17,404 nucleotides of DNA, from the UHGV virus genome UHGV-2147075, one strand, 5' to 3'. Positions 1 through 15,619 of the stretch are shown one piece after another. Origin of the DNA: a virus. The first letter of the stretch is position 1. Each line of letters starts with the position of its first letter. The notes below the pieces were generated by a model. It saw only the letters and a list, made by a program, of their open reading frames with translations, did no database searches and was not told the DNA's origin. The translations under genes and the position numbers were made by a program.

Positions 1-1416
1 GTGAAACAAAGCACTATTGCACTGGCACTCTTACCGTTACTGTTTTCCCCTGTGACAAAAGCCCGGACACCAGAAATGCCTGTTCTGGAAAACCGGGCTG
101 CTCAGGGCGATATTACTGCACCCGGCGGTGCTCGCCGTTTAACGGGGGATCAGACCGCCGCTCTGCGTGATTCTCTTAGCGATAAACCTGCAAAAAATAT
201 TATTTTGCTGATTGGCGATGGGATGGGGGACTCGGAAATTACTGCTGCACGCAATTATGCCGAAGGTGCGGGCGGCTTTTTTAAAGGTATCGATGCCTTA
301 CCGCTTACCGGACAATACACACACTATGCGCTGAATAAAAAAACCGGCAAACCGGACTACGTCACCGACTCGGCTGCATCAGCAACCGCCTGGTCAACTG
401 GTGTCAAAACCTATAACGGCGCGCTGGGCGTCGATATTCACGAAAAAGATCACCCAACGATTCTGGAAATGGCAAAAGCCGCAGGTCTGGCGACCGGTAA
501 CGTTTCTACCGCAGAGTTGCAGGATGCTACGCCCGCTGCGCTGGTGGCGCATGTGACCTCGCGCAAATGCTACGGTCCGAGCGCGACCAGTGAAAAATGT
601 CCGGGTAACGCTCTGGAAAAAGGCGGAAAAGGATCGATTACCGAACAGCTGCTTAACGCCCGTGCCGATGTTACGCTTGGCGGCGGCGCAAAAACCTTTG
701 CTGAAACGGCAACCGCCGGTGAATGGCAGGGAAAAACGCTGCGTGAACAGGCACAGGCGCGTGGTTATCAGTTGGTGAGTGATGCTGCCTCACTGAATTC
801 GGTGACGGAAGCGAATCAGCAAAAACCCCTATTAGGACTGTTTGCTGACGGCAATATGCCAGTGCGCTGGCTAGGACCGAAAGCAACGTACCACGGCAAT
901 ATCGACAAGCCCGCAGTTACCTGTACGCCTAATCCGCAACGTAATGACAGCGTACCGACCCTGGCGCAGATGACCGACAAAGCCATTGAATTGTTGAGTA
1001 AAAATGAGAAAGGCTTTTTCCTGCAAGTTGAAGGTGCATCAATCGATAAACAGGATCACGCTGCGAATCCTTGTGGGCAAATTGGCGAGACGGTCGATCT
1101 CGATGAAGCCGTACAACGTGCGCTGGAATTCGCTAAAAAGGATGGCAACACGCTGGTCATAGTCACCGCTGATCACGCCCACGCCAGCCAGATTGTCGCG
1201 CCGGACACCAAAGCGCCGGGCCTCACCCAGGCGCTAAATACCAAAGATGGCGCAGTGATGGTGATGAGTTACGGGAACTCCGAAGAGGATTCACAAGAAC
1301 ATACCGGCAGTCAGTTGCGTATTGCAGCGTATGGCCCACATGCCGCCAATGTCGTTGGACTGACCGACCAGACCGATCTCTTCTACACCATGAAAGCCGC
1401 CCTGGGGCTGAAATAA
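1..1416 (+). CDS. phoA: alkaline phosphatase, periplasmic (complete; GTG start at window base 1)
   Basis: 471-codon ORF; translation recognisable as enterobacterial PhoA (signal peptide [15 protein letters not shown], catalytic-serine region [12 protein letters not shown], metal-ligand region TADHAHASQ); TAA stop at 1414-1416. Confidence 0.97.
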
Positions 1417-1421
1417 AACCG

Positions 1422-1460
1422 CGCCCGGCGGTGAATTTTTGCTGTCGGGTGGTTTTTTTG
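1422..1460 (+). terminator. candidate intrinsic terminator downstream of phoA
   Basis: Imperfect stem CCCGGC (1424-1429) / GTCGGG (1444-1449, one G-U pair) followed by a T7 run at 1453-1459; the 14-nt loop is large, so tentative. Confidence 0.35.
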
Positions 1461-1534
1461 CTGTTAGCAACCAGACTTAATGGCAGATCACGGGCGCAAA
1501 CGCTCATGGTTAAAACATGAAGAGGGATGGTGCT

Positions 1535-1567
1535 ATGAAAATAACATTACTGGTTACCTTGCTTTTC
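1535..1567 (+). pseudogene. psiF: 5' fragment of phosphate-starvation-inducible psiF, disrupted by prophage insertion
   Basis: ATG at 1535 with RBS GAAGAGGGATGG upstream; encodes MKITLLVTLLF, which matches the PsiF N-terminus as I recall it; reading frame then runs into the phage terminus and stops at TGA 1568-1570. Confidence 0.8.
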
Positions 1568-1645
1568 TGATGCGCCGCGCGATAAACGCACTCTATCTTG
1601 TGCGATAAATGGCATCCACGCGGCGTTTCATTATTTGAAAAAGAA
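1568..1645. mobile_element. prophage right terminus (attR-like; candidate transposase-binding sites)
   Basis: Read toward the end, the terminus is ...CATTTATCGCACAAGATAGAGTGCGTTTATCGCGCGGCGCATCA-3'. Phage Mu right end as recalled is ...CATTTATCGTGAAACGCTTTCGCGTTTTTCGTGCGCCGCTTCA-3' (same CATTTATCG block at the same distance, same CG-rich terminal block, terminal CA). Only 78 bp separate the terminus from the invertase stop. Confidence 0.65.
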
Positions 1646-2218
1646 TTACATTTCAGGTTGCGTTATGACAGTCCCAACAGGGTGATAGCGGTAGATCGTT
1701 GACAGTCCAATATCATAGATAATTGCCAGCCGCTTTCTGTCATACCCTTTCTGGAGCAATCTTGCGATCTGCTCATGCTGCTCCTTCGTCAGTTTCGGGC
1801 GACGTCCTCCAACTCTTCCTTGTGCTCGCGCAGCAGCCAGTCCTGCCAGCGTGCGCTCAACTATCAGTTCACGCTCCATTTCTGCCAGTGCACCCATCAT
1901 ATGAAAAAAGAACCTTCCCATCGGAGTGCTGGTATCGATTGAATCCGTCAGACTGCGAAAATTGACACCTTTTGCGCGTAGCTCTTCTGTGAGAGCAATG
2001 AGGTGTTTCATTCTTCTACCCAACCGATCCAGCTTCCAGACCACCAATGTATCCCCTCTTTTAAGGCACTTTAAAGCGCGTTTCAGGCCTGGTCGTTCCG
2101 ACTTGGTTCCGCTCATTTTGTCCTCAAAAATCTGTTCACATCCTGCGCACATTAATGCATTGCGTTGCAAATCTGTGTTTTGGTCATTTGTTGACACACG
2201 TATGTAGCCAATCAGCAT
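1646..2218 (-). CDS. site-specific DNA invertase, serine recombinase of the Gin/Pin/Cin/Hin family
   Basis: 190 codons from ATG at 2216-2218 (the ORF track extends upstream to a non-start position); N-terminus MLIGYIRVSTNDQNTDLQ with catalytic Ser, C-terminal helix-turn-helix; strongly resembles Mu Gin / e14 Pin as recalled; RBS GGGAG 8 nt upstream. Confidence 0.95.
   Translation of the reverse strand: MLIGYIRVSTNDQNTDLQRNALMCAGCEQIFEDKMSGTKSERPGLKRALKCLKRGDTLVVWKLDRLGRRMKHLIALTEELRAKGVNFRSLTDSIDTSTPMGRFFFHMMGALAEMERELIVERTLAGLAAARAQGRVGGRRPKLTKEQHEQIARLLQKGYDRKRLAIIYDIGLSTIYRYHPVGTVITQPEM
2065..2125. promoter_or_regulatory. candidate Fis-dependent recombinational enhancer inside the invertase 5' coding region
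   Basis: Two 15-bp Fis-like sites with G and C at the ends and AT-rich centres: GGCACTTTAAAGCGC (2065-2079) and GCTCATTTTGTCCTC (2111-2125), centres 46 bp apart, at about +101 and +147 of the invertase gene. In Gin/Hin/Cin systems the enhancer sits at this position. Confidence 0.35.
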
Positions 2219-2231
2219 TAAAAATACTCCC

Positions 2232-2259
2232 TTTTGAGTGGTTAAAGTACTGAGATAAT
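2232..2259 (+). promoter_or_regulatory. candidate extended -10 promoter reading into the invertible segment
   Basis: TGAGATAAT at 2251-2259 (TG-n-GATAAT) with weak -35 TTTTGA at 2232-2237 (16-bp spacer); divergent from the invertase gene. Sequence-pattern call only. Confidence 0.3.
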
Positions 2260-2272
2260 GTGGGGAGGATTT

Positions 2273-2298
2273 GAGAGATAAACGTTGGTTTAGGAGAA
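2273..2298. other. left crossover site for the invertase (gix/pix-like, 26 bp)
   Basis: GAGAGATAAACG-TT-GGTTTAGGAGAA; the inner half-site is identical to that of the right site, outer halves differ, and sequence identity between the two inverted repeats begins exactly at the central dinucleotide (2285-2286). Half-sites fit the Gin/Hin pattern (..TAAACC). Confidence 0.6.
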
Positions 2299-2478
2299 GG
2301 CTCGGCGCTACCCGTTGGTGTGCCTGTTCCGTGGCCCACCGCCACACCGCCAGCAGGCTGGNNNNNNNNNNNNNNNNNNNNNNNNNNNNNNNNNNNNNNN
2401 NCTGGCCAGAGTCTACCCGACCCTCCGTCTTCCCGATTTACGCGGTGAGTTTATCCGTGGATGGGACGACGGGCGCAA
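2285..2478. repeat. left inverted repeat of the invertible segment (contains the N gap)
   Basis: Reverse-complement identical to 3698-3896 wherever sequence is present; mapping is x to 6181-x before the gap and x to 6176-x after it. Confidence 0.9.
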
Positions 2479-2797
2479 AGTTGATACAGGACGTAAGTTG
2501 CTGTCCGCACAAGGGGCAACGCTGTTAAGAACAGCAATGCTGGATTATTATAACCAGGACACTACGGGAACCTCGGGGATAGTCGGCATGGGATTCAACA
2601 ATGAAGATTCCATTACAGACCTTCGTGAGGGCAGCTTTAAAATGCCGGACGGGACAACATTCAGCAATCCTGTCATGGCAATGTCAGACAATGGTATGCA
2701 GGCTACTATTCTGACCTCTATCAGAAGCGGGTATGCGAAGGGTATCACTGTCAGACCCCGTAGCATTGCACTTAATTACATTGTGAGGGCAGTTTAA
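2287..2797 (+). CDS. alternative tail-fibre C-terminal cassette (no start codon; fused to the fibre gene only after inversion)
   Basis: Open frame from the crossover site to TAA at 2795-2797. The first ~65 codons are the inverted-repeat copy of the fibre constant/variable junction (...LGEGSALPVGVPVPWPTATPPAGW, gap, LARVYPTLRLPDLRGEFIRGWDDGRK), then a divergent variable end ...RPRSIALNYIVRAV. The frame is continuous only if the gap is 45 nt. Confidence 0.8.
2362..2401. other. assembly gap (40 N) inside the left inverted repeat
   Basis: Run of N; the intact right copy (3775-3819) is 45 nt across the same interval, so the gap is an arbitrary-length placeholder that is 5 nt short. Confidence 0.95.
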
Positions 2798-3411
2798 TGA
2801 GTAACACTGCAGTTCTGGATGAAAACGGTATCGCCACTGTAGCGGGCGATATCACTGTATATCACTATGACGAGGAAACCCGGGAATACACCTCATCCTC
2901 TGTGGAGTATCTCGCCCTTGGGGTGGGTACTCCGGCACATTCGTGCGCCGATGCACCGCCGGAGGCAATTTCGGGTTACGTGGTTTGTCGGACTGCCACG
3001 CTGAACGGGTGGGAGCATGTGCCTGATCACCGCGGCGAGACGGTATACAGCACGGAGAACGGTAACCCCGTTCTGATTACCCAACCGGGTGATTACCCGG
3101 CGGACACCACCACAAAACAGCCAGCCACGCCATGGGATACCTGGAACGGTGAGGCGTGGGTAACCGATACTGAACGGCAGCGAGCCGCAGAACTGGAGGT
3201 TGCCAGACAGCAACGCCAGCAACGGGTGAAACAGGCGATGGCGTCCGTCGATCTTATCAACCTCAAACTGCGTGCTGGTCGCAGTCTGACACCAGAAGAA
3301 ACGGCAAAACTGAACGCCGTGCTGGATTATATCGACGAGCTGAACGCACTGGATATCAGCACGGCACCTGAAATCAGCTGGCCGGAAGCGCCACTGGCAC
3401 TTGCCAGTTGA
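2797..3411 (+). CDS. tail fibre assembly chaperone (Tfa; Mu U / P2 G-like)
   Basis: 204 codons; ATG overlaps the cassette stop (TAATG); C-terminal region ...LNAVLDYIDELNALDISTAPEISWPEAP is typical of the conserved Tfa C-terminus; SD-like GAGGG upstream. Confidence 0.88.
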   Translation: MSNTAVLDENGIATVAGDITVYHYDEETREYTSSSVEYLALGVGTPAHSCADAPPEAISGYVVCRTATLNGWEHVPDHRGETVYSTENGNPVLITQPGDYPADTTTKQPATPWDTWNGEAWVTDTERQRAAELEVARQQRQQRVKQAMASVDLINLKLRAGRSLTPEETAKLNAVLDYIDELNALDISTAPEISWPEAPLALAS

Positions 3412-3417
3412 ACGGTA

Positions 3418-5010
3418 TCACGCCGCCCTCACGATATAGTTAAACGCGATATTGCGGGGGCGGGTTATGTTAAAGAATGCTCCGTTTAATACGGCTTTTG
3501 CGCGACTGTTTGTTCCACCCAGCATTGCGTACCACAAATAATCGCTACGGTAATTCCCCGCAAACACCTTATCGCCGCCATAGTCAATATTATTTCCGTT
3601 ACTCATGTACGAGATATCAAGCGAAGAATCGTTATCGTCATGACCGCCGACCAGTGTACCTTTCTGCCATGAAAGCAACTTACGCCCCTCGTCAATCTTG
3701 CGCCCGTCGTCCCATCCACGGATAAACTCACCGCGTAAATCGGGAAGACGGAGGGTCGGGTAGACTCTGGCCAGAACAGGATATTGTTCTTTGGTGAACG
3801 TAGCTCCGTTGCACTGTAACCAGCCTGCTGGCGGTGTGGCGGTGGGCCACGGAACAGGCACACCAACGGGTAGCGCCGAGCCTTCTCCTAAACCAAGGTA
3901 ATTGAGGACATCTTTTATACTGCCCTTAGCGATAATAGCGCGACCAATAGCTGTAAGGGTTGCCAGCGCTGCGCGGTCTGCTCCGGTAAAATAAGGCAAC
4001 CGATCTGCTGCAGTGGCAAGCCCTGCCAGAGCAGTGAGCGTGGCATCTGCCGGTTGTTTTCCGTTTGCCAGATCGTATGCAGCCTTGACCGCTTTCGGTG
4101 TGGCGGCCAGTATTTCAGACGTGCTGTTGATGGCACTGCTCAATTGTACGGTGCCTTTTGCCGTCAGCGAGGCAGCAGGCACTCCCGTTATCTGACTCCA
4201 CGGGTGAGTGTGGCTGACGGGCGCCTTGCCGGCTGCAAGGTCGTATGCAGCCTTGACCGCCTTCGGCGTGGCAGCCTCAGTTTCTGATTGACTGTCCGTG
4301 GCGCTGCTCAGTTGTACGGTGCCTTTTGCCGTCAGCGAGGCAGCAGGCACTCCCGTTATCTGACTCCACGGGTGAGTGTGGCTGACGGGGGCCTTGCCGG
4401 CAGCCAGGTCATATGCAGCCTTGACGGCCTTTGGTGTGGCGGCCAGCGTTTCAGAGGTGCTGTTGGTGGCACTGCTCAGTTGTACGATCCCTTTACGGGT
4501 CGTTGTTGCATCCTGGGCTGTGTATTTTCCCCGGGCCAGATCATACGCGATTTTCACAGCCTTCGGCGTGGCAGCCTCAGTTTCTGATTGACTGTCCGTG
4601 GCACTGCTCAGTTGTACGGTGCCTTTTGCCATCAGCGAGGCAGCAGGCACTCCCGTTATCTGACTCCACGGGTGAGTGTGGCTGACGGGTGCCTTGCCGG
4701 CTGCAAGGTCGTATGCAGCCTTGACGGCTTTTGGTGTGGCGGCCAGCGTTTCAGAGGTGCTGTTGGTGGCACTGCTCAGTTGGGTGAACCCCTTAGCTGT
4801 CAGTGTCGCGTCCGGGTGGTTACGGGAACGCACGTGTTCAGCCAGTGACTGTGCGGCTTCCTCCGTTTTCTTCTTCAGCCATTTCGTCCTGTTTGCCAGT
4901 TGCCGGGGGGCTCGATTTGATATCCCGTCAGCACCACCCAGAACCGGATCTGATGTCTCCAGTTGATAGATATTTTCTTCCCACTTTTCTGTTTCATTCA
5001 GGTTTCCCAT
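3418..5010 (-). CDS. tail fibre protein (constant part plus currently joined variable C-terminus)
   Basis: 530 codons from ATG at 5008-5010 (SD GGGAG upstream, 2 nt after the upstream gene stop; the TTG at 5016 used by the ORF track is less likely). Five tandem copies of a ~56-aa phage-fibre repeat (KG.VQLSSAT.S.SET.AATPKAVK.AYDLA); the gene crosses the right crossover site; C-terminus ...NITRPRNIAFNYIVRAA. Confidence 0.92.
   Translation of the reverse strand: MGNLNETEKWEENIYQLETSDPVLGGADGISNRAPRQLANRTKWLKKKTEEAAQSLAEHVRSRNHPDATLTAKGFTQLSSATNSTSETLAATPKAVKAAYDLAAGKAPVSHTHPWSQITGVPAASLMAKGTVQLSSATDSQSETEAATPKAVKIAYDLARGKYTAQDATTTRKGIVQLSSATNSTSETLAATPKAVKAAYDLAAGKAPVSHTHPWSQITGVPAASLTAKGTVQLSSATDSQSETEAATPKAVKAAYDLAAGKAPVSHTHPWSQITGVPAASLTAKGTVQLSSAINSTSEILAATPKAVKAAYDLANGKQPADATLTALAGLATAADRLPYFTGADRAALATLTAIGRAIIAKGSIKDVLNYLGLGEGSALPVGVPVPWPTATPPAGWLQCNGATFTKEQYPVLARVYPTLRLPDLRGEFIRGWDDGRKIDEGRKLLSWQKGTLVGGHDDNDSSLDISYMSNGNNIDYGGDKVFAGNYRSDYLWYAMLGGTNSRAKAVLNGAFFNITRPRNIAFNYIVRAA
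3698..3896. repeat. right inverted repeat of the invertible segment
   Basis: Reverse-complement identical to 2285-2478; similarity decays gradually inward past 3698. Confidence 0.9.
3883..3908. other. right crossover site for the invertase (gix/pix-like, 26 bp)
   Basis: TTCTCCTAAACC-AA-GGTAATTGAGGA; lies inside the fibre coding sequence (codons for ..LNYLGLGEG..); same core dinucleotide as the left site when both are read inside-out. Confidence 0.6.
4057..4797. repeat. coding tandem-repeat array inside the tail fibre gene
   Basis: Near-identical DNA blocks, e.g. CAGTTGTACGGTGCCTTTTGCCGTCAGCGAGGCAGCAGGCACTCCCGTTATCTGACTCCACGGGTGAGTGTGGCTGACGGG at about 4306 and 4606, with a further copy near 4141; corresponds to the 5 protein repeats. 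Confidence 0.85.
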
Positions 5011-5012
5011 AA

Positions 5013-5591
5013 TCAACTGCTCCCGTGGTTATAACTGCCATCATGGATGGCGGTATTGTTATAGCGAATAGCCACAGACTGATACTCCAGGCTGGCCAGA
5101 TGGCAGCGGGCCGGTGCAAATGCAGCGAGCGTCTGACGCAGCATCGCGGCCTGATCGTTAGTAATGGGCTGTTTCAGAATAACGCGATAAACCGCCCAGG
5201 CGGCTGCATCTCCATGAACAAACAGTCCGTTATAGCTGCGATTGCCGTCGTAACTGAGACGACCTGTGCCTTCAATCAGATCCACTTCACCAAAGCCAAA
5301 ACGGCGGATAACTTCCCGGATTGACCACGGCGTCCCTTTATACTGGTGTAGTTCGATGGCTGCTTTTATAAGCATGCGGCGAACATCGTCCGATTCCGCC
5401 AGCTCCCAGCCATCGCCGAACAGTGAGAACTGCTCTCCCAGCCATGGCAGCGCGGAACTGTCGACGATATCGACGAGATAGACCATCAGTACGCTCAGGT
5501 CGATGTTATCCAGCCGCCCGGCCAGTCTTCCCAGCGTTCTGAGGCTGATATCCCCCTCAAGCGGTGGCGGGAGTTGTAGCGGCTCAGCCAT
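5013..5591 (-). CDS. baseplate/tail protein, P2 gpI-like (Mu gp48-like)
   Basis: 192 codons, ATG at 5589-5591 overlapping the upstream stop; size, position between the J-like gene and the fibre, and a central motif (...ELHQYKGTPWSIREVIRRFGFG...) fit the tail-protein-I family. Confidence 0.8.
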   Translation of the reverse strand: MAEPLQLPPPLEGDISLRTLGRLAGRLDNIDLSVLMVYLVDIVDSSALPWLGEQFSLFGDGWELAESDDVRRMLIKAAIELHQYKGTPWSIREVIRRFGFGEVDLIEGTGRLSYDGNRSYNGLFVHGDAAAWAVYRVILKQPITNDQAAMLRQTLAAFAPARCHLASLEYQSVAIRYNNTAIHDGSYNHGSS

Positions 5592-8961: not shown

Positions 8962-9845
8962 CACACACTCCTCGTCAGTATTCTGGCGGCCATTGCACTT
9001 AATCCCGGAGACATGCGGTTGAATGCTGTGCCGGCGGCGTTAAGCTGCCCGGAAACGGTATCCAGAGCACCTGCAATATTTCTTTTGTCCACACCACTCA
9101 GCGCAGACTGTGCCTGCTGTACATACGTGGCTGCTTCGCTGGCTGTTCTGGCCAGACTGATGGCATCGGGCATGGATTCAGAGAGTGCGTTAAACGCCGG
9201 AACACTTTTCCCCAGAGCCCCGGATATATTACCCAGTCCGCTCATCAGCCCCGGCACACGGGTCAGTGCGACAACGGGGTTATCCTTCATTTTCTGTGTC
9301 ACCCGAACGGCTCTGATAGTGGTCTGGAGTACAGACTGCGCCTGTTTCGCATAGTTGACGCCGTTGCGGATGAACTGCGCCACCCCTGAAGGTGAAGGAA
9401 TGGCACCGGAGACCGCCCCGACACCCGGGAGCTTCGTGCGTATTGCCGGTGGTTGCAGAGGATTTTTCGGATCACCGGTGTATTCCCGGAGAGACACGGT
9501 GGCACTGACAGCCAGCACGTTACCGGTGCTGTCTGTCTGCTCGCTGGTTGCGGTCACATCGGTAATCACGAACCAGCCACGATAGTCACCGTTGCCGAAG
9601 ACCAGCGCCAGTGCCTGATGGGCTTTCATGGTTGTTCGCAGTCTCGCCAGCTCCACATCGGGTACACAATAATGCTGATGGAAGACCAGACTTATCTGGA
9701 TTTCGTCCAGCCTGTCGCCGACGAACTGCAGGCCAGGCTTACCCCCGATGCGGGCATGCTCCGCATAATCGACGCCGAACGTGGCCTCGAAGCCGTCCCA
9801 GTAGGTAATCAGCTCAAACTCAATATCACCCAGTACGGCAAACAT
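8961..9845 (-). CDS. tail protein, P2 gpU-like N-terminal domain with C-terminal extension
   Basis: 294 codons; ATG overlaps the tape-measure stop (TGATG); N-terminal ~120 aa (...GWFVITDVTATSEQTDSTGNVLAVSATVSLREY) resembles the gpU family; Ala/Ser/Gly-rich C-terminus. Confidence 0.7.
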   Translation of the reverse strand: MFAVLGDIEFELITYWDGFEATFGVDYAEHARIGGKPGLQFVGDRLDEIQISLVFHQHYCVPDVELARLRTTMKAHQALALVFGNGDYRGWFVITDVTATSEQTDSTGNVLAVSATVSLREYTGDPKNPLQPPAIRTKLPGVGAVSGAIPSPSGVAQFIRNGVNYAKQAQSVLQTTIRAVRVTQKMKDNPVVALTRVPGLMSGLGNISGALGKSVPAFNALSESMPDAISLARTASEAATYVQQAQSALSGVDKRNIAGALDTVSGQLNAAGTAFNRMSPGLSAMAARILTRSV

Positions 9846-12796
9846 CAGCGGTACTCCTTACGTTGTTTCTGAGCCAGCAGACGCTCCAGCATTTTTTCCA
9901 GCTCATGCAGACTCATATTCAGGGCACCAGTCAGTCCTGCAGGCGCTGTGGTTTCCTTGCCATTGAGGAAAAACTGAGGATTAAAGCTGACCTGGATACC
10001 ACCAGACGTTCCACCGCCGGTTGCAGCTGCACCACGGCCTGAATATCCGGCAGCCAGGATTTCAGACGAGGGGATACGGGGAACATCCGGTGTCATCTCA
10101 TTTGCCAGACGTTGCCCTGGTAAAATCGATGCCCGGGTGGAGAGCGGAATAACGGGCATGGAAGACAAACTATTGATTACGGCTCCGATCGCATTTTTAG
10201 CAGACGACATAAACCCGTTGATATCGGGCAACGGCATACTGAAGCGAACACCTGAAGTGTTATCCCGTATTTCTGGCCCCTGGATGCTCACGGGCATTCT
10301 GGGGAGCAGTTCACTGGCCATTCGCTGCCCGGCCAGAGCTGCAAGCGGAGTGGTCCGCTGCAGGCCAATGGCGGCCCCCTGCGCGATATTGTCACCAAAG
10401 CCCATAAACACGCGGCTCGGCGAATGAATGCCCAGCTTTTCGCTGAACCAGCCACTGATGCTGTCACCCATTCCGGTTACACTGGATTTGAGCGACTCCC
10501 ATTTGTTTTTGATACCGTTAATCAGACCATCGACAAGATGGCCACCGAAGTCGGTAAACTTTGCCGGCAGATCAACACCAAGATATTTCAGCGCAGCTGC
10601 AAAGGCTTTATAGAGCAGACCTGCCGGCGACCAGTTAATCAGCAGCTTACCAGTTCCCGCGATACCGCCGTTAAAGGCTTCCTGAATGTCAGCCCAGCAC
10701 TGTTTAAACCAGCTACTGATGCTGTCACCCATTCCGGTTACACTGGATTTGAGCGACCCCCATTTGTTTTTGATACCGTTAATCAGACCGTCGATAAGAT
10801 GGCCACCGAAGTCGGTGAACTTTGCCGGCAGAGCAACGCCGAAATATTTCAGCGCAGCCGCAAAGGCTTTATAGAGCAGGCCTGCCGGCGACCAGTTAAT
10901 CAGTAACTTACCAATTCCCACAATGCCGCCGTTAAAGGCTTCCTGAATGTCTGCCCAGCGCTGTTTAAACCAGCCACTGACTGCCCCCCAGTTGCGGTAG
11001 ATAAGGTAAGCTGCTGCCGCGACAGCGGTGATAACGAGACCGATGGGATTCATCATCAGCGCACGCCCAATCCAGAGAACAGCACGTCCGGCGAGCATAA
11101 TTCCGCGAACCAGCCCCCCGGAGAGCACGCCACTCAGTGTTCTGGCTCCTCTGGCGACGGCGCTAAATCCGGTCACCAGCCAGCGGAGCTTACCGCCTTG
11201 CCCCAGTGCGAGCGACAGACGAAGCCAGTTGGCCCGAAGTAAAACAGCATTTTTCCAGACACTTACAAAGGGGGAAATAAGGAGATTCAGCCCCAGTTTG
11301 AGACCAACAGTCGCTATCTTAATCGCAAGGAGCGCACTGATGAGCTTAAAAGCCCCACTGACAAATTGCGGGTGAGTCGCTACCCAGTGTTTTGCCCCCT
11401 GAATGAGTGGAAGCAGTTCCTGAGTCAAAGAAATAAAAGATGGAGCTAATTGATCGCCCAGCGTAATTGCCAGATCGCGACTGCTGACCATAAGTGTTTT
11501 AGTGGCTTCAAGGGGAGATTTCAGCCGCTGATCATAAGCACTGGCAAGCAAATCGTTATCCGCAGCCCTGAGAGCACCGGCACGGATCTCTCGATATCTG
11601 TCCATGTTGGCCAGCATCGGGCGGATAAATGCCATGACCTGCATATCCGCGAACATATCGCCCAGACCAAAGTTTTTCGCCAGAGCCTGAAGTGCCTCAT
11701 CTCTTGCCGTATCATTCTTTATTTTCATGGCTGATTTGAAGCCGGCCAGCGCTTCGGGGCTTTTGGCATTGAGGTAACGTTCTATAACACTCAACATCCC
11801 TTCAATCGGAGAGATCCCCGCAGCTTTATAACTCGCAATAGATCCCTGCAAATCAATACCCAGATCAGCAAACTGTTTCTGAGTATCGCGGGCAAAAATT
11901 TTGGTAAGAAAGTTTTTAAAATTATTGGCTGCTTCGTCGGTGGAACCTGCACCGATTTTTGCTATCTGGAGACTGGCCCCGATTTCAGCAACAGCCTCTT
12001 TTCCACTGGCAATACCCGCCATCATTGGGGCCAGGGACTGCATCCACTTGACCTGATCCGGGATTTCAAATGACCCCTGGTCACCGGCATAAGCCATAAT
12101 ATTCTGAACGGCACCAAAATCTCTGGCCGCACCTTTCAGGGAGTTTTGCCAGACTGCGGCCACTTTTGCCCAGTCCTGAGCAGACGTGCGTGTTGCCGTT
12201 GCCGCGCGGGCAATATCCGGCATCAGAAAACCGATATCTGACACATTATCAATATTGTCGCTGATGAGTGAACCCACCGCCTCCTGCAGCTCATCCTGAT
12301 ACTGATTGTATTTAAGCGCCCAGCCTTTTATCTGTCCGGCAAGTCCATCCCGCGTTTTATTGTCATATTTTGCGGTGATCGACATATCAATCATTTTGTC
12401 CTGAAAAGACATGGACTGCTGAACGGCAGGGGAAACCGTATGATAAACAGTCTGTGCCATGCCATACGCTTCAATCCCCTGACCATACAGCGCCATGCGG
12501 TTAGCTTTCAGCGCATCACTGGTAGCGGATGCCGCTGACAGACGGCGCTGCTGGCGCTCAATTTGCTCCATGGTGCGGCTTACCCGCAGCAGCTCGCTGT
12601 TGAGATGCTGCATCCGGGAAGAACCCAGTTGACCATAACGTTCTGTTGCACGGGTTAAAGCGTTCTGACGTTCCTGCAGGCGGCGTGAGGTATCGCTCAG
12701 GGAATCAAGCGCACGGCGGGTACCGCTCATTGCAGAACGGAATGTGCTACCAATCATCCCGCCGATAACAACGCCGACTGAAAACTGTCCCGACAT
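9845..12796 (-). CDS. tail tape measure protein
   Basis: 983 codons; strong SD GGAGG upstream of ATG at 12794-12796; largest gene, between the chaperone ORFs and the U/X/D genes; contains an internal tandem duplication. Confidence 0.88.
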   Translation of the reverse strand: MSGQFSVGVVIGGMIGSTFRSAMSGTRRALDSLSDTSRRLQERQNALTRATERYGQLGSSRMQHLNSELLRVSRTMEQIERQQRRLSAASATSDALKANRMALYGQGIEAYGMAQTVYHTVSPAVQQSMSFQDKMIDMSITAKYDNKTRDGLAGQIKGWALKYNQYQDELQEAVGSLISDNIDNVSDIGFLMPDIARAATATRTSAQDWAKVAAVWQNSLKGAARDFGAVQNIMAYAGDQGSFEIPDQVKWMQSLAPMMAGIASGKEAVAEIGASLQIAKIGAGSTDEAANNFKNFLTKIFARDTQKQFADLGIDLQGSIASYKAAGISPIEGMLSVIERYLNAKSPEALAGFKSAMKIKNDTARDEALQALAKNFGLGDMFADMQVMAFIRPMLANMDRYREIRAGALRAADNDLLASAYDQRLKSPLEATKTLMVSSRDLAITLGDQLAPSFISLTQELLPLIQGAKHWVATHPQFVSGAFKLISALLAIKIATVGLKLGLNLLISPFVSVWKNAVLLRANWLRLSLALGQGGKLRWLVTGFSAVARGARTLSGVLSGGLVRGIMLAGRAVLWIGRALMMNPIGLVITAVAAAAYLIYRNWGAVSGWFKQRWADIQEAFNGGIVGIGKLLINWSPAGLLYKAFAAALKYFGVALPAKFTDFGGHLIDGLINGIKNKWGSLKSSVTGMGDSISSWFKQCWADIQEAFNGGIAGTGKLLINWSPAGLLYKAFAAALKYLGVDLPAKFTDFGGHLVDGLINGIKNKWESLKSSVTGMGDSISGWFSEKLGIHSPSRVFMGFGDNIAQGAAIGLQRTTPLAALAGQRMASELLPRMPVSIQGPEIRDNTSGVRFSMPLPDINGFMSSAKNAIGAVINSLSSMPVIPLSTRASILPGQRLANEMTPDVPRIPSSEILAAGYSGRGAAATGGGTSGGIQVSFNPQFFLNGKETTAPAGLTGALNMSLHELEKMLERLLAQKQRKEYR
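10424..10980. repeat. in-frame tandem duplication (2 full copies of 261 bp plus partial flanking copies) within the tape measure gene
   Basis: Copies offset by exactly 261 bp (e.g. CCAGCCACTGATGCTGTCACCC at 10448 and CCAGCTACTGATGCTGTCACCC at 10709); the protein shows WFKQ[RC]WADIQEAFNGG...GMGDSIS[SG] twice, 87 aa each. Confidence 0.9.
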
Positions 12797-12871: not shown

Positions 12872-13289
12872 CTATGATTTGTCGCCGTACTCGCTTTTTA
12901 TTTGCTCTTCAGCCTGCTCCAGCCACATCTCCAGATCGTCAGTATCGAGGGCATCAATCTCCCCCGGCTGAAACCGGAACCATCTCGCCAGCAGCCCCTG
13001 CGCCTGCGTCAGCGCCCTGGTTGCTCTCACCCATCCCCGTGATGAGCTGAAATCGTTTCTGTAACTGCAGGTAATCAGCCAGATCCATATTGTCGAGATC
13101 TTCCGGGAGAAGACCAGTACTGCGGGCAATCAGCGGTTCGTCCCAGTCTGCCGGGTTTTTGCTGATTTTGCGCACCTGCTTCAGGTCTTTTACCGTCAGG
13201 CGTTTCAGTTCAACCAGCTCAATTCTGGTGCCTGCAGCAGTGGTGAAGGGATAAGACAATTTAAAAGTATCGGATGGGGTCTGTGACAT
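12872..13289 (-). CDS. predicted frameshifted chaperone fusion product (E+E' analogue), made by a +1 or -2 shift near 12957-12965
   Basis: A second frame is open from 13129 to TAG at 12872-12874 with no credible start of its own (TTG only); it is the +1 frame relative to the chaperone gene and overlaps its 3' end. Confidence 0.45.
12954..12968 (-). promoter_or_regulatory. candidate recoding site: G5 run immediately before the chaperone stop codon
   Basis: mRNA reads GCC GGG GGA GAU UGA in the zero frame and CCG GGG GAG AUU GAU in the extension frame. Confidence 0.4.
12954..13289 (-). CDS. tail assembly chaperone (P2 gpE / lambda G analogue)
   Basis: 111 codons; ATG at 13287-13289 with SD AGGAG; position between tube and tape measure; Leu/Asp-rich pattern ...ELKRLTVKDLKQV...LLPEDLDNMDLADYLQLQKRF typical of this chaperone class; acidic Gly/Ala-rich C-terminus. 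Confidence 0.75.
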   Translation of the reverse strand: MSQTPSDTFKLSYPFTTAAGTRIELVELKRLTVKDLKQVRKISKNPADWDEPLIARSTGLLPEDLDNMDLADYLQLQKRFQLITGMGESNQGADAGAGAAGEMVPVSAGGD

Positions 13290-13386: not shown

Positions 13387-13668
13387 TCAGCAAGTGCGAA
13401 ACCCCTTGCAGTTACGCAGGAAAGCGATGAGAAGCGTCTTTCCCTCAGATTTGCCGATGCCGGAGAACCAGTGGTCGGGAGGCTCCCATGCTTCAATCAA
13501 ATCCGCCAGTTTGCGGGCCTTTGAACGTGTGCAGTCAATCGGGTCATTGGTTTTACGGGTATTAAAAAGGGTTTCCACCCCCGGAATATCAAGGAGGGTA
13601 AACCACGTACCATTTGACATGCCCAGTGCCGCACATCGTCCTCCTTTATCCGTCAGTTCAACACTCAC
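13387..13668 (-). CDS. hypothetical protein (uncertain coding assignment)
   Basis: 93 codons starting at GTG 13666-13668, 2 nt after the tube stop; no family recognised; a 97-codon ORF on the opposite strand (13394-13687) overlaps it completely. Confidence 0.4.
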   Translation of the reverse strand: MSVELTDKGGRCAALGMSNGTWFTLLDIPGVETLFNTRKTNDPIDCTRSKARKLADLIEAWEPPDHWFSGIGKSEGKTLLIAFLRNCKGFRTC

Positions 13669-13670
13669 CG

Positions 13671-14192
13671 TCAGCCCCCGATATTGATACGGTAGTCAGT
13701 CAGTTGATCAACACCGCCGACCCGGAAGATGTTGGCCAGATAGTCCAGTTGCAGCAGCTCTTCACCATCCAGTACCTGTCTGATATACGTGCAGGTGAAG
13801 CTACTGGAGAACTCGGCGTTCTCGTGCTGTTTGAACGTCCCCAGCGGGTTCTTCTTGAACATAATCGTCAGGAAGGTGACCAGCGGGATTTCGTCAATCA
13901 GCCCCTGCGAGCTGTAGCGCTGGACGCTGGAACGACACTGCAGTGCCAGCGACCTGTACGGGTTCGCGGCAGACAGCATCGCATCGCGGTAAAAGCTGTT
14001 CCATTTGATTTCGCCTTCCAGTTTGTCAAAACCAGCCGGGAGTTCCACCTTACCCACCATCCCCAGCGCCTTGTGTTCCTGCATAATCATGGAGACATCG
14101 GGGAGTTTAACTTCCTCAGCCCGTCCCAGCAGGTTAGTACCATCCAGATAGATGTTGGCATTCGTGATGCGGTTTATCTCAATCTTTGACAT
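13671..14192 (-). CDS. tail tube protein (Mu M / P2 FII-like)
   Basis: 173 codons; ATG overlaps the sheath stop; size and position immediately after the sheath gene. Confidence 0.88.
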   Translation of the reverse strand: MSKIEINRITNANIYLDGTNLLGRAEEVKLPDVSMIMQEHKALGMVGKVELPAGFDKLEGEIKWNSFYRDAMLSAANPYRSLALQCRSSVQRYSSQGLIDEIPLVTFLTIMFKKNPLGTFKQHENAEFSSSFTCTYIRQVLDGEELLQLDYLANIFRVGGVDQLTDYRINIGG

Positions 14193-15619
14193 CAGTTGCC
14201 CCCTTTCAGGGTTAACAGGTATTCCGAGGTGATCTCAGTCTCAAACGTCAGTCGCTCCAGCGGCGGTGGTGGCGTATATTTGTAGCTCAGCAACAGGTGC
14301 CCGGCGGCCAGCTCCGTCTCCGGATTGCGGGCCGGATCAAACCAGCAACGGAAGCCCAGTACCGCACCATCACCAGTCATTTTGCGACCGTAGGCGTTGA
14401 CCGACTCCGTCAGTGCATCAATCAGCGCCTGAGTAATCGGCATGTCGATGTACTGCTGGCTGAAATAACGAATGGACTCGTTGATCACATCACCGGTGCG
14501 GCGAACGTTCTCAAAGTTACGCATATGGGTGACCGTTGGCCATGCTGCCGTCCGGTTACCCCACAGACGAAGGCCGCTGCCGTAACTGCTGAATACCGTG
14601 GTGATCCCCTGTTCGTTAAGCAGGTTCACCTCACTCTGCGGGTCATCAATCATCGCGGACAGCTGGCGCTCCACGCCGGTGATCCCCAGAATCTCCTGAT
14701 TGGAGGATGACCACCAGTAGCCCTTGTCCAGATCGACTCTGGCACGCAGACCTGCTGCACGCTGGCTGAGCGGCTCCAGACGCTCTGTGTTTGTCACCGG
14801 GTCATATACCTTCACATGCGGATAGCACAGACGGACGCGGTCGGAGCTGGTATTGAAGTTGATGGTGCCTTCCGGGCCACGACCTGCCAGAGCCTGTGCA
14901 AAGGTGGTACCGACAGGCGCATCAATGTAGGTTACCGCGCCCAGCTTCTCTGCCATGGCGATAAGCTCAACTGCGACACTCTTCTGGGTGCAGAACACCG
15001 GCGCAATCAGAATTTTGGCGAAATAGCCGTACAGGTTGAAGCTGTCGTTAAGCAGCTTCATGCCGGTTCGGTTTCCGGCGCTGTTCACCCCGCCGATGAT
15101 GTCCGCCGCAGTCACCTTCGACGGGTCCGCGTACTCATAGCTCACCTTCACGCTGCCACCGGCCTCAATAGCCTTGCCCAGGTTCGTGAGCACACCCGCC
15201 TGCGCATCAACACGGTAGTCCGTGTTCGCCGTGTGGGAGGTGCTGCCTTCACTGTTTTTCACCACCACATTAGCGACAACCGGATGCGCCAGTCTGGCCT
15301 GCCCTGTCGATTTGTCAAAGGTAACCACCTCATCCTCGATCGCCGTTTTATGTTTCGCCGGGTCGAGGACGTTAATGACCAGAACGGTACCTGCACCATG
15401 GTCATAAATCGCATCCAGCGCCTGCGGAATGGTAAAGCCGGTGAACTGGCTGCCAAATGCCGCTGCGTCTTTCTCAGACAGGCACTGTACCAGCGTATTG
15501 ACATCCCCCATCGGGGCGGTACCAATCAGGCCAATAACGGCAGATTTCACCGTTTTAACCGGGCGGGCACCGTTTTCCACCTCAATGGTTTCGGGACCAT
15601 GCAGATAGTTAGCTGCCAT
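14192..15619 (-). CDS. contractile tail sheath protein (Mu L / P2 FI-like)
   Basis: 475 codons; strong SD GGAGGA upstream of ATG at 15617-15619; size and composition typical of myovirus sheath proteins. Confidence 0.92.
   Translation of the reverse strand: MAANYLHGPETIEVENGARPVKTVKSAVIGLIGTAPMGDVNTLVQCLSEKDAAAFGSQFTGFTIPQALDAIYDHGAGTVLVINVLDPAKHKTAIEDEVVTFDKSTGQARLAHPVVANVVVKNSEGSTSHTANTDYRVDAQAGVLTNLGKAIEAGGSVKVSYEYADPSKVTAADIIGGVNSAGNRTGMKLLNDSFNLYGYFAKILIAPVFCTQKSVAVELIAMAEKLGAVTYIDAPVGTTFAQALAGRGPEGTINFNTSSDRVRLCYPHVKVYDPVTNTERLEPLSQRAAGLRARVDLDKGYWWSSSNQEILGITGVERQLSAMIDDPQSEVNLLNEQGITTVFSSYGSGLRLWGNRTAAWPTVTHMRNFENVRRTGDVINESIRYFSQQYIDMPITQALIDALTESVNAYGRKMTGDGAVLGFRCWFDPARNPETELAAGHLLLSYKYTPPPPLERLTFETEITSEYLLTLKGGN

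Follow-up and report, generated by a model that had tools for sequence, protein, structure and literature searches.

The question raised by the virus genome UHGV-2147075 is how ribosomes reach the C-terminal extension of a phage tail assembly chaperone when that extension lies in a frame other than the usual one. The whole stretch of DNA analysed (17,404 nucleotides (nt), hereafter the window) is from a BcepMu-like prophage of E. coli with a Mu-type head and a P2-type tail; the minus strand carries all of its tail genes. To our knowledge, the tail-chaperone frameshift is among the most conserved forms of phage recoding, the annotated cases being almost all of the -1 type with Mu as the classic lone -2 case. 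From our comparison of the window with related loci, it is very probable that this chaperone gene shifts into the +1 frame at a UUU_C sequence, where a slip of the P-site tRNA-Phe would give a fusion protein of 138 amino acids (aa). The elements concerned are the following.

13289..12954, minus strand: chaperone gene in the zero frame, 111 aa, counterpart of gpG, P2 gpE and Mu gp41
13047..13055, minus strand: candidate frameshift cassette CGA_UUU_CAG (E-, P- and A-site codons), from conservation
12875..13048, minus strand: putative +1-frame extension after the slip, 58 codons (SSSRGW...EYGDKS), its frame open from 13129
12872..12874, minus strand: stop codon TAG of the extension, read from the sequence
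12893..12991, minus strand: putative GpE-type (P2 E', lambda T-like) domain in the extension, from a sub-threshold PF06528 match
12978..12995, minus strand: LLARWF stretch in the +1 frame, upstream of the G run, from pairwise selection counts
12965..12961, minus strand: run of five G (G5 run), in +1 CCG GGG GAG (Pro-Gly-Glu); not a conserved shift site

Overlapping frames of the chaperone and its extension

The chaperone open reading frame (ORF) extends from an ATG to the TGA at 12956..12954, its residues 8-81 match Pfam PF10109 (Phage_TAC_7, which includes the P2 E, Mu gp41 and gp14 chaperones; E 5.5e-21, 74.8 bits with a cut-off of 25), and its product is named 'phage tail assembly protein' in RefSeq. 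An overlapping ORF has no stop between 13129 and the TAG at 12874..12872. Codons of the zero frame start at positions that are 2 mod 3 and those of the extension at 1 mod 3, which places the extension in the +1 (equivalently -2) frame. A preliminary description, made from the letters of the window, had stated this offset and had located the chaperone pair between tail tube and tape measure; the first is borne out by the codon phase, in the window as in 128 of 131 related loci, and the second by matches to PF04985, PF10109 and PF10145 in that order. The related loci, from Enterobacterales, Burkholderia, Pseudomonas and Ralstonia, comprise 12 bacterial genomes, 115 IMG/VR loci gathered with two narrow alignments, the window, BcepMu and three more records of the GenBank phage collection (Salmonella, Ralstonia and Pseudomonas). 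Our tallies are of distinct sequences (88 for the G run and 89 for UUU_C, with 57 enteric ones in the selection counts and 58 in the motif counts), which are phylogenetically non-independent, and invariance counts among them are not to be read as probabilities. The three remaining loci are two fusions with one G fewer in the G run and one with an upstream indel, and no homologue of the extension was found in the -1 frame of the window or of the related loci compared. Judged by this codon phase, the route to the extension of the pair is a shift into the +1/-2 frame and not a canonical -1 heptamer (X_XXY_YYZ), for which it would have to lie in the -1 frame.

Could the offset be an artefact or a sign of decay, that is, a sequencing error or an inactivating indel in what was ancestrally a single ORF or a -1 slip? 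A few database sequences do hold the protein in one frame (L004, L022 and P0001-P0008), but such fused entries shift at scattered homopolymer positions, as errors would. The same +1 offset recurs across several bacterial orders, and the arrangement recurs at identities of at least 99% in 580 complete E. coli genomes and is also seen in the isolated phages PhiKM, KP12, BcepMu and phiE255. These comparative data rule out artefact and decay, to which we assign practically no probability, and they likewise exclude a -1 heptamer hidden by a sequence error. Searching 1.84 billion representative proteins with the 58-aa extension (phmmer) yielded no natural one-frame fusion; there were only 30 matches, which are short stand-alone ORFs or error-shifted proteins.

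A frameshift would also be unnecessary if the extension were translated alone from an internal start, e.g., the GTG at 13030, as a separate GpE-like protein. Gene callers sometimes call the extension as a stand-alone ORF of 40-85 aa (from GTG 13030 in one degraded prophage in RefSeq), and BcepMu has an in-frame ATG in the reading annotated as gp42. However, a +1-frame start with a Shine-Dalgarno sequence between UUU_C and the conserved C-terminal block occurs in none of the 89 distinct sequences, 11 of which have no start codon of any kind there. An internal start would leave unexplained the invariance of UUU_C and the opening of the +1 frame back to UUU_C in every locus, and the homologous extension of P2 is made only as an E+E' fusion. 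Translation from an internal start is, in our estimate, highly unlikely.

Candidate slip sites within the overlap

The codon of Phe80 in the chaperone is TTT (13052..13050) and is followed by a C at 13049, about 90 bases upstream of the G run. A zero-frame TTT followed by C is invariant at this position (89 of 89 distinct sequences), compared with a TTT share among all Phe codons of the same loci of 49% in the enteric set and 27% in the GC-rich set. At the other Phe codons of the chaperone domain, TTT and TTC stand at 63:57 in enterics and 20:58 in GC-rich hosts. The codons on either side vary by host: CGA_TTT_CAG is found in 56 of 58 enteric sequences and CGA_TTT_CTG in Ralstonia, and in the GC-rich hosts the TTT is preceded by TCC, GCC, ACC, GTG or TGC and followed by CGC, CGG or CGT. 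CGA makes up about 10% of Arg codons, yet it is the E-site codon in all but two of the enteric sequences, and the near-invariance of so rare a codon in the E site hints at tuning. The preliminary description had considered the G run to be the only obvious shift-prone sequence in the overlap, which overlooked the cassette at 13055..13047.

The stop codons of the two frames delimit where the shift could take place. Counted to the end of the Phe codon, the nearest upstream stop in the +1 frame is 11 nt away in 13 distinct sequences and 17 or 29 nt away in others, and the nearest zero-frame stop is 18 nt after the Phe codon in the loci L110-L117, which read TTT CGC AGC ATG GVN RAC TGA (V = A, C or G; R = A or G). 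With these upstream +1 stops and near zero-frame stops, the only interval open to the shift in all lineages alike is ~30 nt (-11 to +18). On inspection, TTT_C is the sole codon within this interval that is able to re-pair in +1, and no codon able to re-pair in -2 was found in the shared interval upon inspection of the related loci. We infer that the event is ribosomal and that its direction is +1 and not -2. The sequence has the form of the UUU_Y class, with a UUU followed by a pyrimidine and the +1 frame open (in the window from 13129), and all 128 loci have this form.

For the lineage of the window itself, the interval allowed by the frames is 13129 to 13020, and it includes a further candidate, ACG_GGG_AUG (13043..13035), a few codons 3' of UUU_C, on which a tRNA-Gly could slip +1 from GGG to GGA. 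A single tRNA, tRNA-Gly(UCC), is able to read both GGG and GGA, and the product would retain the whole extension from Trp86 with the junction ...KRFQLITGWVR.... Nevertheless, GGG followed by A is present in 12 of 57 enteric sequences (with a preceding G, giving a G4 run, in 10), a Salmonella relative is without the Gly codon at this position, and L110-L117 have ATG GTG there; the chance that the shift takes place at this codon is very low.

The preliminary description had instead proposed a stop-stimulated +1 slip, or a -2 slip, on a GGGGGA directly before the UGA. In such a slip on GGG_GGA (12965..12960), tRNA-Gly would move by -2 from GGA to GGG or by +1 from GGG to GGG, with the UGA possibly stimulating. 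The re-pairing is formally perfect in both directions, Mu, of the same Pfam family, has a verified -2 shift on CGG_GGG_CGA, and several database entries have one-base deletions in exactly this run with the frames fused there. However, the zero frame reads GCC GGG GGA GAT TGA, with one GAT codon between the run and the stop, and the stop itself is found 6 to 40 codons past the conserved Phe in the related loci; being so variable, its position is not part of a conserved signal. A run of at least five G is inside the zero-frame ORF in 17 of 88 distinct relatives, downstream of the zero-frame stop in 28 and missing in 43; in 71 of the 88 it is either absent or past that stop. Most enteric relatives stop at GTG GTT TAG, 12 nt upstream of the run. 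Relatives without G5 have a Ser codon in place of Gly or a GGT, silent in +1, that interrupts the run (e.g., L088/L089). Within the window G5 runs number 28, with 45 expected from shuffles, and one more of them is nothing unusual.

A close relative of the window illustrates the same. An E. coli variant with a 90-aa zero-frame product (P0027) is on record from 914 contigs, and one such locus (L038, 1070-1075) is identical to the window over 201 displayed bases except for one C-to-T change, which converts codon 91 from CAG (13017-13019) to TAG and is silent in +1 (ACC to ACT). The G run is then 51 nt past the zero-frame stop and, as the stop precedes it, out of reach of zero-frame ribosomes. The variant is in itself a natural truncation experiment on the zero-frame tail.

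Selection, counted as pairwise synonymous versus non-synonymous differences per frame, also bears on the G run. For 12995..12978, upstream of the run, the 57 distinct enteric sequences give 820 synonymous and 0 non-synonymous differences in the +1 frame and 0 synonymous and 1186 non-synonymous ones in frame 0, with swaps such as TTC/TTT, CGG/AGA and AGA/AGG that are silent in +1. The counts show that purifying selection alone acts on the +1 frame from 12995 at the latest, i.e., before the run, and consequently that the extension is already read in +1 upstream of it. A fusion built with the G-run junction (139 aa) has no PF06528 match, and a junction there would cost the protein its predicted helix 1 together with positions 4-13 of the GpE profile. 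Furthermore, the G run has neither the Mu-type -2 arrangement (a re-pairing P-site codon at a conserved position within the zero-frame ORF) nor that of a prfB-type stop-stimulated +1 shift (an adjacent stop and a Shine-Dalgarno stimulator), and no Shine-Dalgarno core was found upstream of either the run or UUU_C when the sequence was read. Given a run that is absent or past the zero-frame stop in most relatives, selection for +1 upstream of it and a junction that truncates the GpE domain, we disfavour the slip on GGGGGA, whose probability we consider very low. It predicts junction peptides ...MVPVSAGGEIDALDTDDLEMWLEQAEEQIK (-2) or ...VSAGEIDALD... (+1), without ALTQAQGLLAR.

Several entries have one G fewer in the run (L004, L022 and P0001-P0006, including an Erwinia tracheiphila chromosome and an IMG/VR contig) and join the zero frame to the 29 C-terminal residues of the extension (VSAGEIDALD...); the probable causes are homopolymer errors in sequencing or mutations that inactivate the gene. 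A search with the G-run fusion gave as full-length matches 138-aa proteins with a one-base deletion or scattered shifts, which we also read as errors or mutations. The run is an indel hot spot that could mislead annotation.

Returning to UUU_C, several observations weigh against a slip at this site. Over the first 18-54 nt past UUU_C in enterics, the ratio of synonymous to non-synonymous differences is 0.62 in +1 and 0.28 in frame 0, over the first 18 nt in the GC-rich set it is 0.02 in +1 and 0.36 in frame 0, and selection is decisive for +1 only from +54 nt onwards. As the counts are ambiguous just 3' of the site, its position within a single lineage is bounded by the ORF architecture and the conservation of the motif and not by selection, and the ~30-nt interval presupposes one homologous site in all lineages. 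No significant RNA structure is seen when 12930..13075 is folded as a single sequence (z = -0.29), an alignment fold of 11 diverse sequences gives -10.9 kcal/mol with hardly any covariation (a term of -0.35 and one compensatory pair), and no upstream Shine-Dalgarno stimulator was found at UUU_C. The A-site codon CAG is common in E. coli, TTT_C as such is no rarity (a C follows 6 of the 57 in-frame TTT codons in eight tallied genes), and CGATTTC occurs at the chance rate. The match of the resulting fusion to PF06528 (Phage_P2_GpE; residues 100-132, E 0.0015) scores 18.4 bits, below the cut-off of 23. The event at UUU_C, its direction and its rate are in short deduced from sequence comparison.

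The predicted fusion protein and its gene neighbourhood

The anticodon of tRNA-Phe is GAA, which pairs with UUU by G-U wobble and with UUC by a G-C pair. Better pairing on UUC makes re-pairing in +1 favourable. The +1 site of influenza A PA-X, UCC_UUU_CGU, has been explained by the higher affinity of tRNA-Phe for UUC, and the same study foresaw a whole class of UUU_C sites in which the choice of E-site and A-site codons is limited (PMC3498833). UUU_Ynn is described as especially +1-prone in bacteria, with no stop codon needed, and the YopN-TyeA frameshift of Yersinia apparently takes place on it (PMC5009743). In the mechanism proposed here, most ribosomes would reach the zero-frame stop and make the 111-aa short form, while in a minority the tRNA-Phe in the P site would slip one base from UUU (13052..13050) to UUC (13051..13049), and these ribosomes would read 58 codons in +1 up to the TAG. 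Residues 1-80 plus these 58 would make up the 138-aa product, in which the Phage_TAC_7 domain would be joined to a GpE/T-type helical hairpin. A shift at UUU_C would yield the tryptic peptides FSSSR, GWVR, ALTQAQGLLAR, WFR and FQPGEIDALDTDDLEMWLEQAEEQIK, and a ~15-kDa species. Its efficiency is probably a few per cent, since the molar ratio of G to GT in lambda is ~30:1 (PMC5009743) and the -2 shift of Mu has an efficiency of ~2.2% (PMC3498833). If lambda G/GT, P2 E/E+E' and Mu gp41/42 are a guide, the fusion may have a role in assembly, in which the shared N-terminal domain would coat the tape measure protein and the rare extension would recruit tube subunits, a fixed low ratio of the two forms being what matters.

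A profile of 21 diverse fusions is colinear with P2 gpE+E' over 122 columns (hhalign, E 0.0042), and in this alignment the verified -1 site of P2 is within 3-4 residues of Phe80. Trp86, six residues past the junction in +1, is conserved in at least 90% of the 21 fusions. The PF06528 match starts at residue 20 of the extension, here as in P2 E', and in one genome RefSeq names the extension ORF 'GpE family phage tail protein'. Given the single sequence of the extension, AlphaFold models a helical hairpin with a mean predicted local distance difference test (pLDDT) score of 76.5; the first modelled helix comprises extension residues 3-26 and is thus wholly upstream of the G run, which by itself is weak evidence. 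Searches of NCBIfam and of PDB sequences with the fusion gave no matches.

In the E. coli RefSeq and phage GenBank records that we inspected, the short form alone is given and the long form is unannotated. The GenBank record of BcepMu (L003, AY539836, 2603-3364) does suspect slippage, but has gp42 as the G-like protein and gp43 as the slippage product; by homology the recoded pair appears to be gp41 and gp42, and the annotated pairing appears wrong. On the reverse strand, an ORF overlaps the gp43 stretch; towards its C-terminus it resembles a small multi-pass membrane protein (MNIQSIAEGITYTVIAIAGVVLAVWLF...), and this ORF may be a separate gene between chaperone and tape measure. If the UUU_C shift is real, the frames could be joined at the conserved TTT_C with which the PF10109 domain ends, an annotation rule that would correct many records.

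Escherichia phage PhiKM, a member of Bcepmuvirus, matches the region at 99.8% identity, and the region occurs in 637 of 5426 complete E. coli genomes (~12%). The order of transcription is Mu gp36/gp37-type head-tail genes, sheath, tube, a small ORF, chaperone and tape measure, and 3' of the tape measure are baseplate genes of the P2 U/X/D/V/W/J/I type, then the tail fibre and the invertase. The genes around the chaperone are as follows.

15619..14192, minus strand: sheath
14192..13671, minus strand: tail tube gene, P2 FII type (Pfam PF04985, E 2.9e-53)
13668..13387, minus strand: small ORF, 93 aa, hypothetical in PhiKM and RefSeq
12796..9845, minus strand: tape measure gene, the expected binding partner of the chaperone (PF10145, E 2e-20; so annotated in PhiKM)
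5016..3418, minus strand: tail-fibre gene
2315..3411, plus strand: two ORFs, one of them a tail-fibre assembly protein
2347..1646, minus strand: resolvase/invertase gene
1..1416, plus strand: gene with a full-length alkaline phosphatase domain, PF00245 (Pfam)

The 93-aa ORF at 13387-13668, between tube and chaperone, has a sub-threshold match to DUF7739 (24.7 bits, with 27 required), and no counterpart gene is present at that position in P2 or in the Salmonella Infantis relative. Within the tape measure gene there is a 261-bp tandem duplication at 10446-10980 (2.0 copies, 92% identical), of which the repeated protein segment is 87 aa (WFKQ.WADIQEAFNGG...SSVTGMGDSIS); it should lengthen the tail. 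The GenBank record of PhiKM has a sequencing gap within its tape measure gene, probably caused by this duplication. Positions 1-5016 are the prophage-host junction, beginning with the PF00245 gene, which is probably the host phoA, and their layout looks like an invertible host-range segment of the Gin/Cin type.

Comparison with known frameshifting systems

A recoded chaperone of the G/GT type and the slip chemistry of UUU_Y were both known before; as far as we know, their combination and its conservation throughout a family are new, as apparently is the change in frameshift direction relative to P2 at a near-homologous codon. In the searchable literature, nothing was found that describes a +1 UUU_C shift for a tail-chaperone gene, although Xu et al. 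2004 and, for BcepMu, Summer et al. 2004 may mention it. The comparisons make it likely that the BcepMu-like lineage (E. coli, Salmonella, Klebsiella, Burkholderia, Pseudomonas and Ralstonia) relies on a programmed +1 shift at a bare UUU_C, which is also the minimal motif of influenza PA-X, and that among homologous chaperones the direction has switched (-1, +1 and -2) while the junction and the product were kept. A large, clinically widespread prophage family appears to use a third solution, +1 on UUU_C, where neither a stop codon nor a Shine-Dalgarno element nor an RNA structure was detected; if true, phages would have their first natural case of the UUU_C class, and bacteria a tractable model of UUU_C slippage.

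In lambda, G and GT are encoded by overlapping ORFs between the major tail (tube) gene and the tape measure, the second of which has no start of its own, and the long form is made at a low fixed ratio (PMC5009743). The features of such a pair are found here, namely its position, an overlap without a conserved start and a conserved shift-prone sequence. Lambda shares this gene arrangement, but slips on a canonical -1 heptamer and has no sequence similarity to the window. P2 gpE and gpE+E' have the same PF10109 family, the same GpE-type extension and the same slot between tube and tape measure. The P2 fusion is 142 aa and the one predicted here 138 aa, the slip sites align 3-4 residues apart at Phe80, and the GpE domain begins 20 residues past the junction in both. 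Unlike the UUU_C tetranucleotide with its +1 slip, P2 slips -1 on a U6 heptamer, GGT_TTT_TTG, and its zero-frame tail past the site is 7 aa as against 31 aa here. The gp41/gp42 of Mu, whose GenBank record notes a verified -2 shift, are the same functional module with an extension likewise in the +1/-2 frame. The Mu site, CGG_GGG_CGA, is nine codons (27 nt) before the stop with seven sense codons between, and its -2 re-pairing is perfect, whereas the shared interval here has no -2-capable codon; the Mu extension has no detectable similarity to the extension here.

The +1 slip in the P site is shared with E. coli prfB (RF2), whose stop-stimulated shift on CUU_UGA is of the type invoked by the preliminary description. 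However, prfB requires an adjacent 3' stop and an upstream Shine-Dalgarno-like element, both of which UUU_C and the G run lack. A further parallel is provided by the UUU_Y sites, i.e., the E. coli argI error site, Yersinia YopN-TyeA and influenza A PA-X, which have the same P-site slip from UUU to UUC and are stop-free, and the UUU_CGN of plant amalgaviruses belongs to the same class. The known UUU_Y cases are cellular genes or eukaryotic RNA viruses and not phage tail chaperones. In the GC-rich relatives, TCC/GCC/ACC_TTT_CGC/CGG is almost the PA-X cassette UCC_UUU_CGU, while in the window the A site has the common CAG, not a rare Arg codon, and the rare CGA is in the E site. The family thereby offers natural variation in the E and A sites round one slip codon (CGA_UUU_CAG versus NCC_UUU_CGN), which could inform on the tuning of +1 shifts in bacteria.

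A relative in Pasteurella phage AFS-2018a (L021, 1468-1900) has the same chaperone family with its extension in the -1 frame, and its slip site is likely A_AAG_GGA, directly before the stop. In essence, the compared sequences suggest that all three types of shift occur within PF10109 chaperones (-1 in P2 and L021, -2 in Mu and +1 here), which makes the family a case of frameshift direction switching between homologous genes.

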